From Escherichia phage VEc25: a stretch of 64,000 nucleotides of DNA. This document shows, in pieces, positions 1-5,390 of the stretch; positions within the stretch are counted from its first letter, which is position 1; each line of letters starts with the position of its first letter. The translations under genes were made by a program, and so were the position numbers. The stretch lies in sequence record MW175414.1; one strand, given 5' to 3'. The notes beneath the pieces are model-generated. The model saw nothing but the letters and a program-made list of their open reading frames with translations, ran no database searches and was not told the DNA's origin.

Positions 1-169
1 CTCTTTGATTGGTACTCTGTCCATTAAGACCCAGCCTGACAGTGGTAAAGCTACTGCTGAGATTAGTGGTAATGTACTGACAGTTAAACCTGTAGCCGCA
101 GGTGACACTACTGTAGTAGTCACCAACGGAACCAAGGAAGTAACTGTTACGGTTAATGTTACAGAGTAA
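1..169 (+). CDS. 3' end of an upstream gene; Ig-like (Big_2-like) domain C-terminus, possibly capsid decoration protein (partial)
   Basis: Frame 2 reads ...LTVKPVAAGDTTVVVTNGTKEVTVTVNVTE then TAA at 167-169; followed by hairpin terminator 191-214. Confidence 0.4.
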   Translation, partial: SLIGTLSIKTQPDSGKATAEISGNVLTVKPVAAGDTTVVVTNGTKEVTVTVNVTE

Positions 170-190
170 TGTGATTGTTTTTATGAATGT

Positions 191-214
191 AGCCCTCCTT
201 GTGAGGGCTTTTTA
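191..214 (+). terminator. Rho-independent terminator
   Basis: GCCCTC/GAGGGC stem, 5-nt loop, then TTTTT. Confidence 0.6.
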
Positions 215-238
215 GTATTTATAGGAGAGTAAATAATT

Positions 239-553
239 ATGGCTAATAAGAACTGTCTTCGTGTATGGCATATCCCTCAAGTACCCGGCAAAGCCTTCTA
301 TGTTGAAGTAGATTCAGTAGAAGAAGGTGTACGTATCATTGATATACTAGCCAACTATGACCTATTCCAGTATGAGAACAATATCAAAGGTGATTACTGC
401 AATGTCTCTGGTTTACAGATGTATGATGAACATATCACTGATGATGAAATGGAAGAGATGGGTCTGACTGACCGTTGGGTAGACTGGTACTATGAAGATG
501 ACCAGAGCTTTTTTGATAACCCGAAAGAGTATTTGAATAATCTCAAGAAGTAA
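239..553 (+). CDS. Hypothetical acidic protein (104 aa)
   Basis: ATG at 239 preceded by AGGAGAG; ORF runs to terminator. Confidence 0.5.
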   Translation: MANKNCLRVWHIPQVPGKAFYVEVDSVEEGVRIIDILANYDLFQYENNIKGDYCNVSGLQMYDEHITDDEMEEMGLTDRWVDWYYEDDQSFFDNPKEYLNNLKK

Positions 554-593
554 TTTCTTGGGGTTAATGACCCTTATTAATTCCTTATCCTTT

Positions 594-617
594 GCCCTCC
601 TATGGAGGGCTTTTTTA
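594..617 (+). terminator. Rho-independent terminator
   Basis: GCCCTCC/GGAGGGC stem, 3-nt loop, TTTTTT. Confidence 0.6.
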
Positions 618-627
618 CGGAGTACAA

Positions 628-834
628 ATGTTTAAGTTCTTAGACCTTATCTGGGCAGTCATTTTGCTGGTTGCTACAGGCTTTGTATATGGCTTCTTGC
701 TCCCATCAATGATGTCTGCTTTAGACAGCATCATTGTTGTTATGGGCTTGATAGTCTGTATTGTGTGGCCTCTTATCGTAGGCCGTATCGTTTATCTTAC
801 AGTTAAGAAAAGGATGAGAAGAAAACATGTATAA
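628..834 (+). CDS. Small membrane protein (68 aa)
   Basis: Track ORF 592 starts at TTG inside the terminator hairpin; first ATG is 628 (MFKFLDLIWAVILLVATGFVYGF...), two hydrophobic segments; overlaps next gene by 8 nt. Confidence 0.45.
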   Translation: MFKFLDLIWAVILLVATGFVYGFLLPSMMSALDSIIVVMGLIVCIVWPLIVGRIVYLTVKKRMRRKHV

Positions 835-1663
835 GTACATTGCAGTAGCAATTGCAGGGCTAATCATTGCTCTAAGTTTAACGAGCTGCTATGACCGAGT
901 TGAACCAGGTAATGTAGGTATTATCGTTAACCGTCTTGGTGAAGATAAAGGTGTGGAAAATGAGGTTAAAGGTGTAGGCCGTTACTGGCTCACTTGGAAT
1001 GAAGAACTTTATACATTCCCGACCTTTAAGCAGATGAAGACCTATGACGGTCTGTTCTACTTCCAACTGTCTGATGGTACTCAGATAGGCCACCAGATGG
1101 CTATCAGCTATAAAGTGAACCCTACTAAGGTAACTAATATCTTCCAGACGTATCGTAAGGGAGTTAATGAAATTACCGAGCAGGATTTACGACAACGTAT
1201 TGCTGATGTACTTAACAGACAGGGTAACCTGATTAACACTGATACCTTTATTGATGGTGGTAAATCTAAGCTACTGGATAGTGTCACTGACACAATCCGT
1301 AAAGAGATGGAACCAGTGGGGATTGATATTATTGCTATCTCCTGGATTGGTGCTCCTGAATACCCTGATAACGTTAAACGTGCCATTAATGCCAAAGTAG
1401 AAGCTACTCAGAAAACTCTGCAACGTGAGCAAGAGATTCAGCAACGTGTAGCAGAAGCTAATATGGAACGTGAACAAGCTAAGGGTGTAGCAGATGCTAT
1501 TCTGATTAAGGCTAAAGCAGAGGCTGATGCTATTCGTTTACGTGGTGAAGCACTCACTGAGAACCCAAATGTAATGCAACTGGAAGCCATTAATAAGTGG
1601 AATGGTACATTACCTACCACAATGATTCCTGGGGCTACTACACCTTTCGTTAATGTGAAATAA
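827..1663 (+). CDS. SPFH/band-7 (stomatin/HflC-like) domain lipoprotein
   Basis: N-terminal signal with lipobox LTSC; SPFH-like core; C-terminal Ala/Glu-rich helix (AKAEADAIRLRGEA); SD AAGGA. Confidence 0.55.
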   Translation: MYKYIAVAIAGLIIALSLTSCYDRVEPGNVGIIVNRLGEDKGVENEVKGVGRYWLTWNEELYTFPTFKQMKTYDGLFYFQLSDGTQIGHQMAISYKVNPTKVTNIFQTYRKGVNEITEQDLRQRIADVLNRQGNLINTDTFIDGGKSKLLDSVTDTIRKEMEPVGIDIIAISWIGAPEYPDNVKRAINAKVEATQKTLQREQEIQQRVAEANMEREQAKGVADAILIKAKAEADAIRLRGEALTENPNVMQLEAINKWNGTLPTTMIPGATTPFVNVK

Positions 1664-1669
1664 CTAAGC

Positions 1670-1699
1670 AAACCCACCATTACGGTGGGTTTATTTTTT
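1670..1699 (+). terminator. Rho-independent terminator
   Basis: CCCACC/GGTGGG stem then TTTATTTTTT. Confidence 0.6.
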
Positions 1700-1725
1700 G
1701 AAGTTATCTAACACTGGGTATTCCT

Positions 1726-1950
1726 ATGAAAGTAAATGTTTTACGTCGTAAGAAAGTTCCTTTCTTTCAAATCAATTGTGGTTCATGTTTTCAACACGAT
1801 GATGACTACTATATGAAGTGTAGTTATCAATCTAAAGAACACTTCTACGGTGTGAATTTACAAACAGGGCATCTGTTCACATTTGATAATAATGACTTTG
1901 TTTATCCTGTGACTTTAGAAGCATGTATTCCTGACCCACTTAATAAATAG
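1726..1950 (+). CDS. Hypothetical Cys-rich small protein (74 aa)
   Basis: ATG start; CGSC...C...C spacing suggests possible zinc ribbon. Confidence 0.4.
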   Translation: MKVNVLRRKKVPFFQINCGSCFQHDDDYYMKCSYQSKEHFYGVNLQTGHLFTFDNNDFVYPVTLEACIPDPLNK

Positions 1951-1951
1951 T

Positions 1952-2308
1952 ATGGCTCAAGAAAAGAATCGTCGTCAGACACTTATCGAACGTATTCAGG
2001 CCAGAATCAAATTACAGGACTTAGGCTATACCGTTAATGGTCAGCCTAGTCTCTGTCACATCTGGACTGGTTCACATTCAGGTAATGGACGTGGTGGGCA
2101 ATATGGCAGGATTTCCGTGAATGGAGTTACCTCTGCAACTCATATTATTGCCTATACCCATTATCATGGTTATATCCCCAATAAGATGCAAGTAGACCAT
2201 CTCTGTAATAACCGTCTGTGCTGTAACCCTGAACATCTTGAATTGGTTACTCACCAAGAGAACCAGAGAAGAAGGGCTAAGCGTTCTAAATCTAAAGGAA
2301 ATAAATAA
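1952..2308 (+). CDS. HNH endonuclease (free-standing)
   Basis: C-terminal VDHLCNNRLCCNPEHLELVTHQENQRR matches the HNH core (His-Asn...Cys pairs...His). Confidence 0.65.
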   Translation: MAQEKNRRQTLIERIQARIKLQDLGYTVNGQPSLCHIWTGSHSGNGRGGQYGRISVNGVTSATHIIAYTHYHGYIPNKMQVDHLCNNRLCCNPEHLELVTHQENQRRRAKRSKSKGNK

Positions 2309-2479
2309 ATGATTAAAAAACTTATTTGTAAACTTATTGCAGCAATCTTAATTAGTATTATTGGTATTGCATGGGTAATTTCTACGCCAGATAACGTTAT
2401 GCAACAAATTTATTATGCTGTATATACATCAACCTCTTTTGTTTGGGTTTATGTAATGTACCGTATTTGTAGCGACTAA
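2309..2479 (+). CDS. Small membrane protein (56 aa), absent from ORF track
   Basis: ATG at 2309 immediately after HNH stop; MIKKLICKLIAAILISIIGIAWVIS...FVWVYVMYRICSD; two hydrophobic stretches; below 60-aa cutoff. Confidence 0.3.
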   Translation: MIKKLICKLIAAILISIIGIAWVISTPDNVMQQIYYAVYTSTSFVWVYVMYRICSD

Positions 2480-2508
2480 TACTTAATATAGCTTAACTGG
2501 AGAGTAAA

Positions 2509-3567
2509 ATGGCTAGTATTGATTCTATTGCCGTATGTAATCCACGGCAGGTACGTAAATTTGTTGAACACTGTATCCGTTCAGGATTGGTTCCATTTAT
2601 CACTTCATCTCCTGGTATGGGTAAATCTGCAATTGTTCGTCAGATTGCAGAAGATTTTGGCCTGAAACTGATTGACCATCGTCTGTCTACTTCAGCACCA
2701 GAAGACCTGTCAGGTCTGCCTCGTTTTAAAGAAAATGGTCGTGCTGAATTTGCTCCATTTGATGAGCTATTCCCATTGGAAGGGGATGTTGTACCTGAAG
2801 GATTTAATGGCTGGCTTCTCTTTCTCGATGAGTTTAACTCTGCTCGTAAAGAGATTCAGGCTGCTGCTTATAAATTGGTACTCGACCGTATGACTGGTCA
2901 GAAGAAGCTACATCCTTATGTAGCTATCGTATGTGCTGGTAACAAAGCAACTGACCGTGCCATTACTAATAACCTATCTACAGCTATGCAATCACGTCTT
3001 ATTCATCTGGAAATGGAGACTGATTTTGATGTCTTCATGGAAGATGTAGCCATCCCTAATAAGTGGGATGAGCGTGTAATTGCATTCCTGAATGCTAACC
3101 CAAATAAACTGAATGATTTTGAACCAGACCATCAAGAGAAGACTTTCTGTTGTTCTCGTACATGGGAGTTCGTTAACAAGATTGTTTCCATTCTCCCACC
3201 AGGACCAATTAATAGTGAAATGACTCTACTGTTAGCAGGCACTATCACTTCTGGTGTAGCAACATCATTCGTCCAGTTTACTCAGGTCTATAGCAACATG
3301 GTGTCTTTGAATGAGATTTTGGATAATCCTAAGAAAGCTCGTATGCCTGAAGACAATAACCTGTTGTGGGCTGTAGTCACTTCACTGATTAACAATACTG
3401 ACGAAGATAATCATTCGAAAATCTTTGATTACGTTGAACGTATGCCATTTACGTTCAAGGTTTTGTACTACCGTTCCGTAGGTAGTCTGGTTCCAGCTTT
3501 GGTTAAATTACCGAACTGGCGTGTTGCTGCAATCACATTATCTAAATACGTTCATGGTTCCAATTAA
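2509..3567 (+). CDS. AAA+ ATPase, MoxR-like
   Basis: Walker A SSPGMGKSA, Walker B LLFLDEFN; SD GGAGAG. Confidence 0.65.
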   Translation: MASIDSIAVCNPRQVRKFVEHCIRSGLVPFITSSPGMGKSAIVRQIAEDFGLKLIDHRLSTSAPEDLSGLPRFKENGRAEFAPFDELFPLEGDVVPEGFNGWLLFLDEFNSARKEIQAAAYKLVLDRMTGQKKLHPYVAIVCAGNKATDRAITNNLSTAMQSRLIHLEMETDFDVFMEDVAIPNKWDERVIAFLNANPNKLNDFEPDHQEKTFCCSRTWEFVNKIVSILPPGPINSEMTLLLAGTITSGVATSFVQFTQVYSNMVSLNEILDNPKKARMPEDNNLLWAVVTSLINNTDEDNHSKIFDYVERMPFTFKVLYYRSVGSLVPALVKLPNWRVAAITLSKYVHGSN

Positions 3568-3733
3568 TAAGAAGGGAGTTACAGACCTCCTGTATGTTGC
3601 TGGCTTTAACGGTGAAGAAATTACCGTATATGCCTCAAGTCTGGCTGCTGCTAAACAAAAGGCAGTTGAATACTTTCGTCCAAAGAAACGTGTAGCCCAT
3701 ACTATTTGGGTTCATCTCGCAGAGGAAAACTGA
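3554..3733 (+). CDS. Small hypothetical protein (59 aa)
   Basis: ATG at 3554 overlaps the ATPase stop; fills the ATPase-VWA gap; no strong SD. Confidence 0.25.
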   Translation: MVPINKKGVTDLLYVAGFNGEEITVYASSLAAAKQKAVEYFRPKKRVAHTIWVHLAEEN

Positions 3734-3734
3734 T

Positions 3735-4877
3735 ATGTCCATGACAGATGCTCAATTAACCCGTGAATATGACAGATGTCAGGCTAAAGCCTTTATGGGC
3801 AAAACTGCTGCATTCTTTGGTTCACTGTTATGTTCTCTGAAGTTCCGTTGGGTAAAAGATGGCTGTGATACAGCACAAACCGATGGTGAGCATCTCGAAT
3901 GGAATCCTGATTGGTTTGAAAGTCTATTACCTGAATCTCGTGTAACAGTACTTATGCATGAACTATGGCATGTCGGCTTACTGCATTCTGTTCGTATGGG
4001 TTCTCGTGACCCAGAAGTATGGAATTATGCCTGTGATATTTATATCAACAATCAGCTTATTCAGGATGGCTACAGCTTTATAGAAATCGAAAATTGCTGG
4101 AAAGACCTTAAGTATGCTGGTTGGGCTGAAGAACAAATCTATGATGACCTCATGAGCAAACAGATACGTCCTCCTAAAGCATCAGGTGCTTTTGGGACTG
4201 GCTCAGGTGGTGACATGAAACCTTCCACTTCGAAGGCTAGTCAGGTGAATATTGTCAATAATGTAGTAAGAGCCATGCACCAACAGAAACTATCTGGTGG
4301 CTCTTTGCCTGGGGTATTACCTGGAAAAATGGAAGAAGTTATTACTCAATTCCTGAAACCAGTAGTACCGTGGCAGGTTTTACTTGAACGCTTCTTCAAT
4401 GACCTGCAAGAAACTTACTACTCATGGCAACGGCCTAATCGTAGATACCCTGATATGTACCTACCATCTCCTATGGATGATGACGGTAAACTGGAACATC
4501 TGGCTTATTTCCTCGATACATCTGGCTCCATTAAACCTAAAGATGCTTTACGCTTTAGCTCTGAAGTGGCCTATGTAAAAGAGAAATATCAGCCTCAGAA
4601 GATGACTCTAGTTCAGTTCACTACAGAGATTGTAGACGAACAAGTCATTGAAGATGGTGATAAGTTTACTGATGTCACTATCAAAGGACGTGGTGGTACT
4701 AGTCTGGTTCCTGTACGTGAGTGGATTATTAAGCATAAGCCTACTGCTGCCATTATCTTTACTGACTTAGAAGTCAGACCGATGGAGCCATTGCCATTTG
4801 ACATTCCTGTCATATGGGTAGTTATTCGTAACCCTGGTGCACAAGTTCCATTTGGGAAAATTATTAACATTACATGA
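3735..4877 (+). CDS. HExxH metallopeptidase-like plus VWA (MIDAS) domain protein, MoxR partner
   Basis: HELWH zinc-binding-like motif near N-terminus; DTSGS MIDAS motif in C-terminal half; SD GAGGAAAA. Confidence 0.55.
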   Translation: MSMTDAQLTREYDRCQAKAFMGKTAAFFGSLLCSLKFRWVKDGCDTAQTDGEHLEWNPDWFESLLPESRVTVLMHELWHVGLLHSVRMGSRDPEVWNYACDIYINNQLIQDGYSFIEIENCWKDLKYAGWAEEQIYDDLMSKQIRPPKASGAFGTGSGGDMKPSTSKASQVNIVNNVVRAMHQQKLSGGSLPGVLPGKMEEVITQFLKPVVPWQVLLERFFNDLQETYYSWQRPNRRYPDMYLPSPMDDDGKLEHLAYFLDTSGSIKPKDALRFSSEVAYVKEKYQPQKMTLVQFTTEIVDEQVIEDGDKFTDVTIKGRGGTSLVPVREWIIKHKPTAAIIFTDLEVRPMEPLPFDIPVIWVVIRNPGAQVPFGKIINIT

Positions 4878-4883
4878 GGTTTT

Positions 4884-5390
4884 ATGGTTGTTAATGGAAA
4901 ACTATTGTTAGGTGCTATGCCCATTAAGGGCATGGTTAACAGTAAACTCAGTTCAGGTGAGACTACATTTGGACTGGGAGAAGCTGGTTATGACATCCGT
5001 ATTAAACAGGATGTTACCTTCTACCGATTTCTTGGTTTGATTCCCTGCATCAAGATTAAAGATGAAGGAAAGACCAAGTGGAAGTTTGGCACTTTCACAT
5101 TAGCTTCTGCAATGGAACGTTTCAATGTACCTGCTGGCCTAGTAGGTATTGTCCATGACAAATCCACATGGGCAAGGCGTACATTATCTGTATTCAATAC
5201 CGTTATTGAACCAGGATGGTCAGGCTATCTGACTTTAGAACTGGTTTATCACGGTCGTAAAAAACTTCATATCCCTGCTGGTTCAGGTATTGCTCAGGTC
5301 ATCTTCCATGAGACAGTAGAGAATACTGCCTACAATGGGCGATACCAGAACCAGCCTAATCAACCTGTAGCTGCTAAGTCAGCTCGTTAA
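4884..5390 (+). CDS. dCTP deaminase/dUTPase-superfamily enzyme
   Basis: Size and motifs (GYDIRIK..., GWSGYLTLELV) fit the dCTP deaminase/dUTPase beta-clip fold; SD GAGG. Confidence 0.5.
   Translation: MVVNGKLLLGAMPIKGMVNSKLSSGETTFGLGEAGYDIRIKQDVTFYRFLGLIPCIKIKDEGKTKWKFGTFTLASAMERFNVPAGLVGIVHDKSTWARRTLSVFNTVIEPGWSGYLTLELVYHGRKKLHIPAGSGIAQVIFHETVENTAYNGRYQNQPNQPVAAKSAR

Follow-up and report, generated by a model that had tools for sequence, protein, structure and literature searches.

Positions 628 to 1,663 of a 64,000-nt stretch of DNA from Escherichia phage VEc25 (sequence record MW175414.1; this whole stretch is referred to as the window) contain two overlapping genes, gp19 and gp20, whose products were analysed computationally. 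Bases 1-5000 of the window showed 98.2% identity to Escherichia phage N4 and 99% to several Enquatrovirus isolates; judged by sequence, the source phage is an N4-like Enquatrovirus. The open reading frames (ORFs) at 628-834 and 827-1663 are gp19 and gp20 in the N4 record. RefSeq annotates them in N4 as "membrane protein" and "lipoprotein", respectively, and gp20 was "similar to Yersinia pestis protein" in the original N4 annotation. gp19 extends from ATG at 628, with a GGAG Shine-Dalgarno sequence 7 nt upstream, to TAA at 832-834 and encodes 68 aa. gp20 extends from ATG at 827 to TAA at 1661-1663 and encodes 278 aa. The overlap is 8 nt (ATGTATAA, 827-834). gp19 and gp20 are evidently real genes and not chance ORFs, because both are annotated in N4, match PHROG families, and are conserved with the same adjacency down to ~30% identity. 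An alternative TTG start for gp19 at 592 was rejected; it would cross an upstream terminator-like hairpin and has no support from homologue alignments or the N4 annotation. The opposite strand at the locus has short ORFs only.

Upstream of the pair lie gp15/gp16 (early RNAPII genes), gp17 (decoration protein), and the P22-gp17-like gene gp18. The original prediction had placed it in the early region; this label is approximate, the pair lying just past gp15/gp16. Terminator-like hairpins are present on both flanks, one 11 nt before the gp19 start (-18 kcal/mol, z = -3.8) and the other 7 nt past the gp20 stop (-14.3 kcal/mol, z = -3.9). gp19-gp20 therefore looks like a discrete two-gene unit. 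Such hairpins are enriched in the first 5 kb (10 found, 2.9 +/- 1.8 expected), and the small units gp17, gp18, and gp19-20 each end in a hairpin plus T run. Sigma-70-like promoters are depleted in 1-5000 (7 found, 14.2 expected); transcription of this region is generally ascribed to phage RNA polymerases. No Rfam family was found in 1-3000. Base composition gave no sign of a foreign origin; the G+C content of the pair (0.413) equals that of the window (0.416).

Features of the gp19-gp20 unit (positions in the window)
Feature	Position	Strand	Basis or detail
Terminator-like hairpin, left unit boundary	594..616	+	GCCCTCC-TAT-GGAGGGC then T6; 7-bp stem, 6 GC pairs
gp19, 68-aa integral membrane helical hairpin (predicted)	628..834	+	PHROG 1130 (E = 2.7e-20), AlphaFold2 model
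gp19, most conserved part	703..747	+	End of helix 1, 4-residue predicted periplasmic turn, start of helix 2 (P26-S-M-M-S30-A-L-D-S...G40)
gp19, basic C-terminal tail	799..831	+	TVKKRMRRKHV, seven basic residues; basic tails also in homologues
gp20, SPFH/Band_7 (prohibitin/HflK/C-like) lipoprotein precursor (predicted)	827..1663	+	Pfam PF01145, PHROG 200, AlphaFold2, Foldseek
Lipoprotein signal peptide and lipobox (predicted)	827..889	+	MYKYIAVAIAGLIIALSLTS followed by C21; K3, hydrophobic core, L18-T-S-C21
SPFH alpha/beta domain	890..1360	+	Residues 22-178; AlphaFold2 secondary structure and Pfam match
Single 65-residue helix (predicted)	1367..1561	+	Residues 181-245; Ala/Gly/Glu-rich repeat
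Conserved C-terminal tail	1562..1660	+	NP..MQLEAINKW258-N-G260-xLP263...PF
Terminator-like hairpin, right unit boundary	1670..1699	+	9-bp stem then ATTTTTT

Hydropathy analysis of gp19 showed hydrophobic stretches at residues ~7-25 and ~35-57, followed by the basic tail KKRMRRKHV. The AlphaFold2 model, based on an alignment of 29 relatives, had helices at 4-29 and 34-66 separated by a turn at 30-33 (mean predicted local distance difference test score [pLDDT] 78). P26, S30, and G40 were invariant across the gp19 family in two independent alignments (A4 and A5); L28 was nearly invariant, and gp19 itself has Met at this position. The PHROG category of gp19 is "moron/host takeover". Neither gp19 nor 28 relatives matched any Pfam family, including NfeD and holin (E <= 0.01). 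Assignment of gp19 as an NfeD protein was rejected on this basis and because it has two helices only, without a soluble domain. Assignment as a described holin was likewise rejected, because no holin match was found in Pfam or PHROG and the N4 lysis cassette lies elsewhere. On its model, gp19 shares with class II/pinholin-type holins the general shape only, i.e., two transmembrane (TM) helices plus a basic tail.

gp20 matched Pfam PF01145 (Band_7) over residues 24-210 (E = 1.7e-23, 84 bits; cut-off 23.6) and PHROG 200 (E = 6.8e-95). Its LTSC signal fits the lipobox pattern [LVI][ASTVI][GAS]C; cleavage would leave C-Y-D-R-V at the mature N-terminus, with the first SPFH strand starting at residue 22. 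The original prediction of a 68-aa two-helix membrane protein overlapping by 8 nt a 278-aa SPFH protein with an LTSC lipoprotein signal was thus borne out by ORF check, hydropathy and hairpin model, Band_7 profile, and lipobox. Mean pLDDT of the gp20 model was 77.6. Residues conserved within the family in the long helix are A209, A211, A218, G220, A222, A229, and A233, and this helix (181-245) corresponds in the model to the coiled-coil wall of SPFH cages. In the tail, W258 and G260 were invariant and P263 nearly so in 40 diverse family members (35-58% identity). The pLDDT was <50 at 251-278; a tail modelled with low confidence yet conserved is consistent with folding that depends on oligomer formation.

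Foldseek comparison of gp20 with PDB ranked prohibitin (8rrh, 1e-14) first, followed by HflK/C (7vhq, 7wi3), erlin1/2, and stomatin; flotillin and QmcA-YbbJ (8z5g, 2.5e-8) ranked lower. Probability was 1.00 for prohibitin, HflK/C, erlin, stomatin, and flotillin. The sole PDB sequence match was the prohibitin-2 coiled coil 6iqe (E = 0.0022). The HflC equivalog TIGR01932 (NCBIfam) gave a sub-threshold match (E = 3.2e-4, 19.6 bits vs. a cut-off of 134.4). gp20 is a genuine SPFH protein of the prohibitin/HflK/C type and not an orthologue of HflK or HflC. Family members are recorded as "serine protease", "transposase fusion protein", "protein QmcA", "HflC protein", "HflK family protein", "lipoprotein", or "MbpS", and the SPFH domain alone is detectable in them. 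The "serine protease" name of many gp20 homologues was rejected as a misnomer because Band_7 alone, and no protease domain, was detected; it probably derives from stomatin-operon proteases.

Close homologues of gp20 (60-65% identity) were found in three settings: ~110-kb SSU5/pHCM2-type E. coli phage-plasmids, in which the pair lies between RecA and DUF1281; integrated prophages with a DUF2800/Enc34-SSB/PolA/SNF2 replication module; and other schitoviruses. At 91 of 92 close loci, a two-helix ORF of 55-78 aa alignable with gp19 abutted or overlapped the SPFH start (gaps of +3, -1, -4, -8, -16, and -20 nt); the remaining locus is truncated at a contig end. Distant loci were collected by searching a species-level genome collection with a 10-sequence alignment, which yielded 80 loci, and were scanned with an iterated hidden Markov model of the hairpin. 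A hairpin homologue was detected in 58 of these bacterial loci, whose SPFH proteins are 31-51% identical to gp20 and whose taxa include Dyella, Leptospira, Sutterella, Saprospirales, and Dependentiae. It was directly upstream on the same strand in 57 cases; the match in L152 was ~1 kb further upstream. Partner length across close and distant loci was 55-90 aa.

The association was also recovered in the reverse direction. A profile of 20 partners found 87 proteins, all unnamed, and a Band_7 gene was immediately downstream in 4/4 proteins chosen from these matches. The gp19 single-sequence search found only two proteins, because of a word-index limit. In-frame fusions of hairpin and SPFH domain were present in 18 of the 150 best representatives at 50% identity. 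In 17 of them the hairpin is N-terminal and is followed by a basic linker and the lipobox signal typical of the family; uninterrupted reading frames were found in L127 and L136 (at the DNA level) and in the enterobacterial protein P0074. The C-terminal fusion P0127 was not relied on; because its topology would be inverted, it may instead reflect read-through between two genes that lie in the opposite order. gp19/gp20 has the properties that define the pair (PHROG 1130 plus PHROG 200), i.e., upstream hairpin, coupling, and residues P26, S30, and G40 of the P-x-L-x-S...G motif. Judging from these searches, gp19 is a dedicated partner of the gp20 SPFH protein. The original prediction that the pairing is meaningful is supported by its strong conservation, its recovery in both search directions, and the natural fusions. 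The suggested resemblance to NfeD/stomatin operons fared less well; it is an analogy only, since the NfeD profile search was negative for gp19 and gp20 is nearest to the outward-facing prohibitin/HflK/C/erlin group, not to the cytoplasm-facing stomatin-NfeD pairs.

Clustered at 50% identity, the SPFH subfamily comprises 169 clusters at E < 1e-30, a number that rises to 963 at E < 1e-10. By tblastn, gp20 homologues were found in 641 of 50,697 phage records. Carriers include Staphylococcus Kayvirus (MbpS), Pseudomonas Bruynoghevirus, PVP-SE1-like and phiCbK-like phages, Lak megaphages, a crAss-like phage, Mx1, the P2-like phage P88, RCS47, and Stx2a phages. Clear gp19 homologues were present in P88 (E = 4e-21) and PVP-SE1 (E = 6e-18). 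In unrelated phages (N4-like, SSU5-like phage-plasmids, P2-like, PVP-SE1-like), the pair is mostly located among early/replication genes. In bacteria, 26 Dyella/Rhodanobacteraceae loci (within L101-L151) carry the pair with a divergent BlaI/BlaR1-like pair on one side and nrdAB on the other; both flanks were present in 19 of them and one flank in the other 7. This fixed chromosomal position indicates that the pair is a general membrane module of cells, which occurs in phages as well. The BlaI/BlaR1 neighbourhood may hint at regulation by envelope stress. The BlaR1-like sensor is of the Peptidase_M56 type, and ribonucleotide reductase genes lie on the other flank; L178, L179, and L184 are listed with the Dyella-type bacterial loci. 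A separate observation concerns L094, a 579-bp contig (NZ_JPLA01000211.1) in the Dyella japonica DSM 16301 assembly, which encodes the C-terminal 138 residues of gp20 with 99% identity to the window phage; this looks like contamination of the assembly with an N4-type phage and not like a Dyella gene.

Several observations bear on membrane placement. The basic tail of gp19 puts its C-terminus in the cytoplasm by the positive-inside rule, and its N-terminus then too; the topology is presumably N-in/C-in, with the conserved turn at the periplasmic surface. The order of elements in the fusions (hairpin, basic linker, signal/TM3, SPFH domain) fits this architecture and places both parts in the same membrane. 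A lipobox was present in at least 97 of 150 family representatives. The Cys usually precedes the first SPFH strand by 3 residues, and in gp20 the domain begins one residue after it; the SPFH domain should therefore lie flat against the membrane, where the gp19 turn could reach it. In ~20 representatives, a plain signal-anchor replaces the lipobox. The very common SSU5-type protein P0088 (L003-L007, E. coli phage-plasmids; 362 index blocks) has lost the lipobox Cys (…MGIIG-Y-DRVEPG) despite 62% identity to lipoprotein versions, and an uncleaved signal-anchor presumably keeps it in the membrane. Among the 120 closest gp20 homologues, 50 enterobacterial proteins have C-D-R-V, with Asp at +2, and 57 form a schitovirus clade with C-(Y/W)-(E/Q/D)-R-V. 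Asp at +2 is the E. coli signal for retention of lipoproteins in the inner membrane. From the fusions, the signal-anchor variants, and the relatives with Asp at +2, we infer that the gp20 family sits on the inner membrane and faces the periplasm.

The model of structure and assembly that we favour, and consider somewhat better than evenly supported, is a two-component scaffold of the prohibitin/HflK/C type, built from gp19 and gp20 and attached to the host inner membrane on its periplasmic side. In this model, gp20 would be exported, acquire a lipid at Cys21, and stay in the inner membrane, where it would form a ring or cage whose wall and cap elements are helix 181-245 and the C-terminal tail. 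gp19, at a ratio of ~1:1 to gp20, would contact it via the periplasmic turn and provide the membrane-spanning part, which in TM-anchored SPFH proteins is built in. The complex could then fence off a patch of inner membrane during infection.

Five points weigh against this model. The identity of gp20 to HflK/C and prohibitin is only 15-18%. The hairpin profile detected no partner in 22 of the 80 distant loci; in at least one of them, L095, a divergent hairpin with the LP.LISS motif had escaped the profile. The upstream small membrane proteins of Kayvirus, Bruynoghevirus TL, and phiCbK had no detectable homology to gp19. N4-type proteins have Tyr at +2 (C-Y-D/E; Asp at +3 in gp20), so that sorting to the outer membrane is possible on sequence grounds; aromatic residues at +2 can also keep lipoproteins in the inner membrane. 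Finally, the oligomer, the gp19-gp20 contact, and the localization are all things that we infer.

Known systems resemble the pair in part. The E. coli HflK/HflC cage has, like gp20, an N-terminally anchored periplasmic SPFH domain, a long helix, and a C-terminal closing segment, and the fold match is strong (8e-14 to 1e-10 for 7vhq, 7wi3, and 9cz2). However, HflK/C hetero-oligomers contain two SPFH paralogues that each have a TM helix, whereas gp20 is a single protein with a predicted lipid anchor and a separate gp19 hairpin. The prohibitins PHB1/PHB2 (8rrh, 9o9z) are the best overall structural match to gp20, and both prohibitins and gp20 face away from the cytoplasm/matrix. Prohibitins are TM-anchored hetero-oligomers, in contrast to the predicted lipid-anchored gp20. 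The portion of the SPFH classification that deals with subfamilies SPFH3, SPFH4 ("prokaryotic prohibitins"), and SPFH6-12, i.e., HflK/C, prohibitin-like, and minor subfamilies, gives no NfeD homologue for them (Hinderhofer et al. 2009, PMC2636767) and describes no other partner, whereas the gp20 family has a conserved hairpin partner.

SPFH-NfeD operons (QmcA-YbbJ, 8z5g; Pyrococcus PH1511-PH1510) resemble the pair in linking an SPFH gene with that of a small membrane protein, and in those operons the two proteins assemble together. NfeD partners are, in the relevant part of PMC4208085, defined by a soluble OB-fold domain, whereas gp19 has neither a soluble domain nor an NfeD match. The QmcA type faces the cytoplasm, according to the corresponding section of PMC2636767; the gp20 family is predicted to be periplasmic, and the fold match is weaker. 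In Kayvirus, MbpV-MbpS is similar in that a basic-tailed small membrane protein gene overlaps the SPFH start by 1 nt, and MbpS is ~30% identical to gp20. However, MbpV has a single TM helix and no detectable homology to gp19 (E = 0.024 vs. nine sequences), MbpS is TM-anchored, and the Kayvirus pair, unlike the N4 pair, lies beside lysis genes. T5 Llp and Cor of phi80/N15 are small phage outer-membrane lipoproteins that are made during infection and block FhuA, and they have no SPFH domain or TM partner. gp20 resembles them as a predicted phage-encoded lipoprotein, but its distribution and the inner-membrane evidence do not fit.

What the scaffold does can be proposed only tentatively, and we hold any specific physiological role of gp19/gp20 to be doubtful. 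By analogy, and with low confidence, it may condition or protect the inner membrane or sequester a host inner-membrane protein, for which an FtsH-type protease is the precedent. In the leading specific idea, which is modelled on the complexes of HflK/C with FtsH and of prohibitins with AAA proteases, such a protein would be sequestered or modulated; an alternative purpose would be general membrane stabilization through a long infection. Prohibitins and HflK/C both partner AAA+ membrane proteases, and this precedent favours the explanation that gp19/gp20 is an HflK/C mimic, a ring that captures or modulates FtsH from the periplasm and thereby shifts the turnover of phage and host membrane and regulatory proteins. 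The HflK/C-FtsH complexes 7vhq, 7wi3, and 9cz2 are among the best fold matches of gp20, gp20 has the same predicted periplasmic orientation and domain order, the HflC profile was weakly matched, and the idea has also been put forward in phage genome papers (PMC8540360, PMC10269572). However, the HflC match is far under its cut-off, identity is ~16%, and the locus has one SPFH gene next to a 68-aa hairpin instead of an HflK/HflC pair. Because the pair is also found in strictly lytic phages, a role in the lysis-lysogeny decision cannot be general. Mimicry of HflK/C is an unlikely explanation, though one of some substance. The original prediction suggested superinfection exclusion or envelope remodelling, for which no specific support was found. 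Superinfection exclusion would require either an outer-membrane lipoprotein that masks a receptor, as in the case of T5 Llp and Cor, or an inner-membrane block to DNA passage, as in the case of T4 Imm and Sp. The possible outer-membrane sorting of gp20, a predicted lipoprotein with Tyr at +2, would suit the former; the pair also adjoins gp18, whose P22 gp17-like family is filed under "superinfection exclusion", is placed with genes expressed ahead of the virion genes, and includes a protein of the "moron/host takeover" category. No homology to known exclusion proteins was found, and PADLOC gave no match for gp19, gp20, or their neighbours. Receptor masking in particular is opposed by the presence of the same pair in phages of unrelated receptors and Gram-positive hosts and at a fixed chromosomal position in Dyella, and by the fusions and signal-anchor variants that put the family in the inner membrane, away from outer-membrane receptors. 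Temperate relatives keep the pair in the lytic replication operon, not among lysogen-expressed genes. We think that gp20 is not a receptor-blocking exclusion lipoprotein; the distribution argues against receptor specificity, and the form of exclusion that would be possible is a general inner-membrane block to DNA entry. Exclusion of either form is rather improbable.

The small partner has its own alternative. gp19 looks like a class II holin (68 aa, two TM helices, highly basic C-terminus), and as a holin- or antiholin-like hairpin restrained or organized by gp20 it could contribute to the long lysis inhibition of N4, a phenomenon whose mechanism the literature describes as unsolved. In Kayvirus, the equivalent mbpV-mbpS genes neighbour the endolysin gene, and MbpV has been described as holin-like. 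However, gp19 and 28 relatives matched no holin family; the N4 lysis genes form a separate cassette elsewhere in the genome (signal-anchor-release endolysin, pinholin, regulator, and gp60/gp60a spanins), and the study of that cassette makes no mention of gp19/gp20; most carriers place the pair among replication genes; and the Dyella chromosomal copies have no lysis context. A function in lysis timing is thus very improbable. A further explanation is that the scaffold stabilizes or repairs the inner membrane against abortive-infection effectors or envelope stress until progeny are made. SPFH proteins are linked to bacterial membrane stress responses in the relevant parts of two papers (PMC8581546, PMC11222466), the Dyella copies adjoin the divergent BlaI/BlaR1-type signal system, and the pair goes with early genes in many unrelated phages. 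This evidence is purely circumstantial, and PADLOC gave no match to a defence or anti-defence family; we consider a dedicated function in membrane integrity or anti-defence to be a slim prospect.

Among the neighbouring genes, gp18 (239-553) matched Pfam GP17 (PF17420, E = 1e-55), which is named "superinfection exclusion gene product 17", and is a single-gene unit between terminator-like hairpins at 191-209 and 594-610. P22 requires its gene 17 to evade exclusion by a resident prophage, not to exclude; the "superinfection exclusion" label of gp18 may thus be misleading. The small genes just downstream of the pair include gp22 (1952-2308), which encodes an HNH_3 homing-type endonuclease (E = 8.6e-20). 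Another conserved pair is formed by gp24 (2509-3567; AAA_5/MoxR-like ATPase, weak Pfam scores) and gp25 (3735-4877), which contains a DUF2201_N putative metallopeptidase domain (E = 1e-85) and a VWA-like DUF2201 domain (2e-46). The annotation of gp25 as "HNH endonuclease" (PHROG 1314, RefSeq) was rejected, since the domain content does not support it.

A literature search for N4 plus SPFH, gp19/gp20, CRISPRi-ART, and SPFH plus superinfection exclusion found no functional study. Phage SPFH proteins in the literature searched appeared in genome descriptions with speculation on their role only, namely possible help with Sec export (PMC7150955) and possible links to lysogeny through FtsH (PMC8540360, PMC10269572). 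A prophage of Pasteurella also carries an SPFH virulence protein, PM0222 (PMC9872710). The genes themselves are already annotated. The hairpin partner and the fusions appear undescribed in the literature searched, because the sections of the SPFH classification on those subfamilies give no NfeD homologue for them (PMC2636767); the conserved split or fused partner thus appears to be new within that literature.

SPFH proteins are universal membrane organizers, and the solved cages of HflK/C, prohibitin, erlin, stomatin, and flotillin make their mechanism approachable. To this our analysis adds an N4 protein that belongs to a large subfamily, much of which has an uncurated two-helix partner, split or fused, and presumably faces the periplasm; it also corrects the misleading names "serine protease", "transposase fusion protein", and "QmcA". 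gp19-gp20 is a compact two-gene system in a well-studied coliphage and could be used to study the role of an SPFH scaffold in infection and the recruitment of a membrane-spanning part by a lipid-anchored SPFH protein. As a speculation that we rate as unlikely, the pair may be a "split prohibitin", i.e., a lipid-anchored SPFH cage with a separate TM hairpin, with which phages of many families take early control of an inner-membrane patch, e.g., by enclosing FtsH or some other membrane machine in the cage or by protecting the membrane from abortive-infection pore formers. If this is true, the split prohibitin would be a widespread unrecognized module of host takeover or counter-defence in >600 sequenced phages, including N4, K, and phiCbK.

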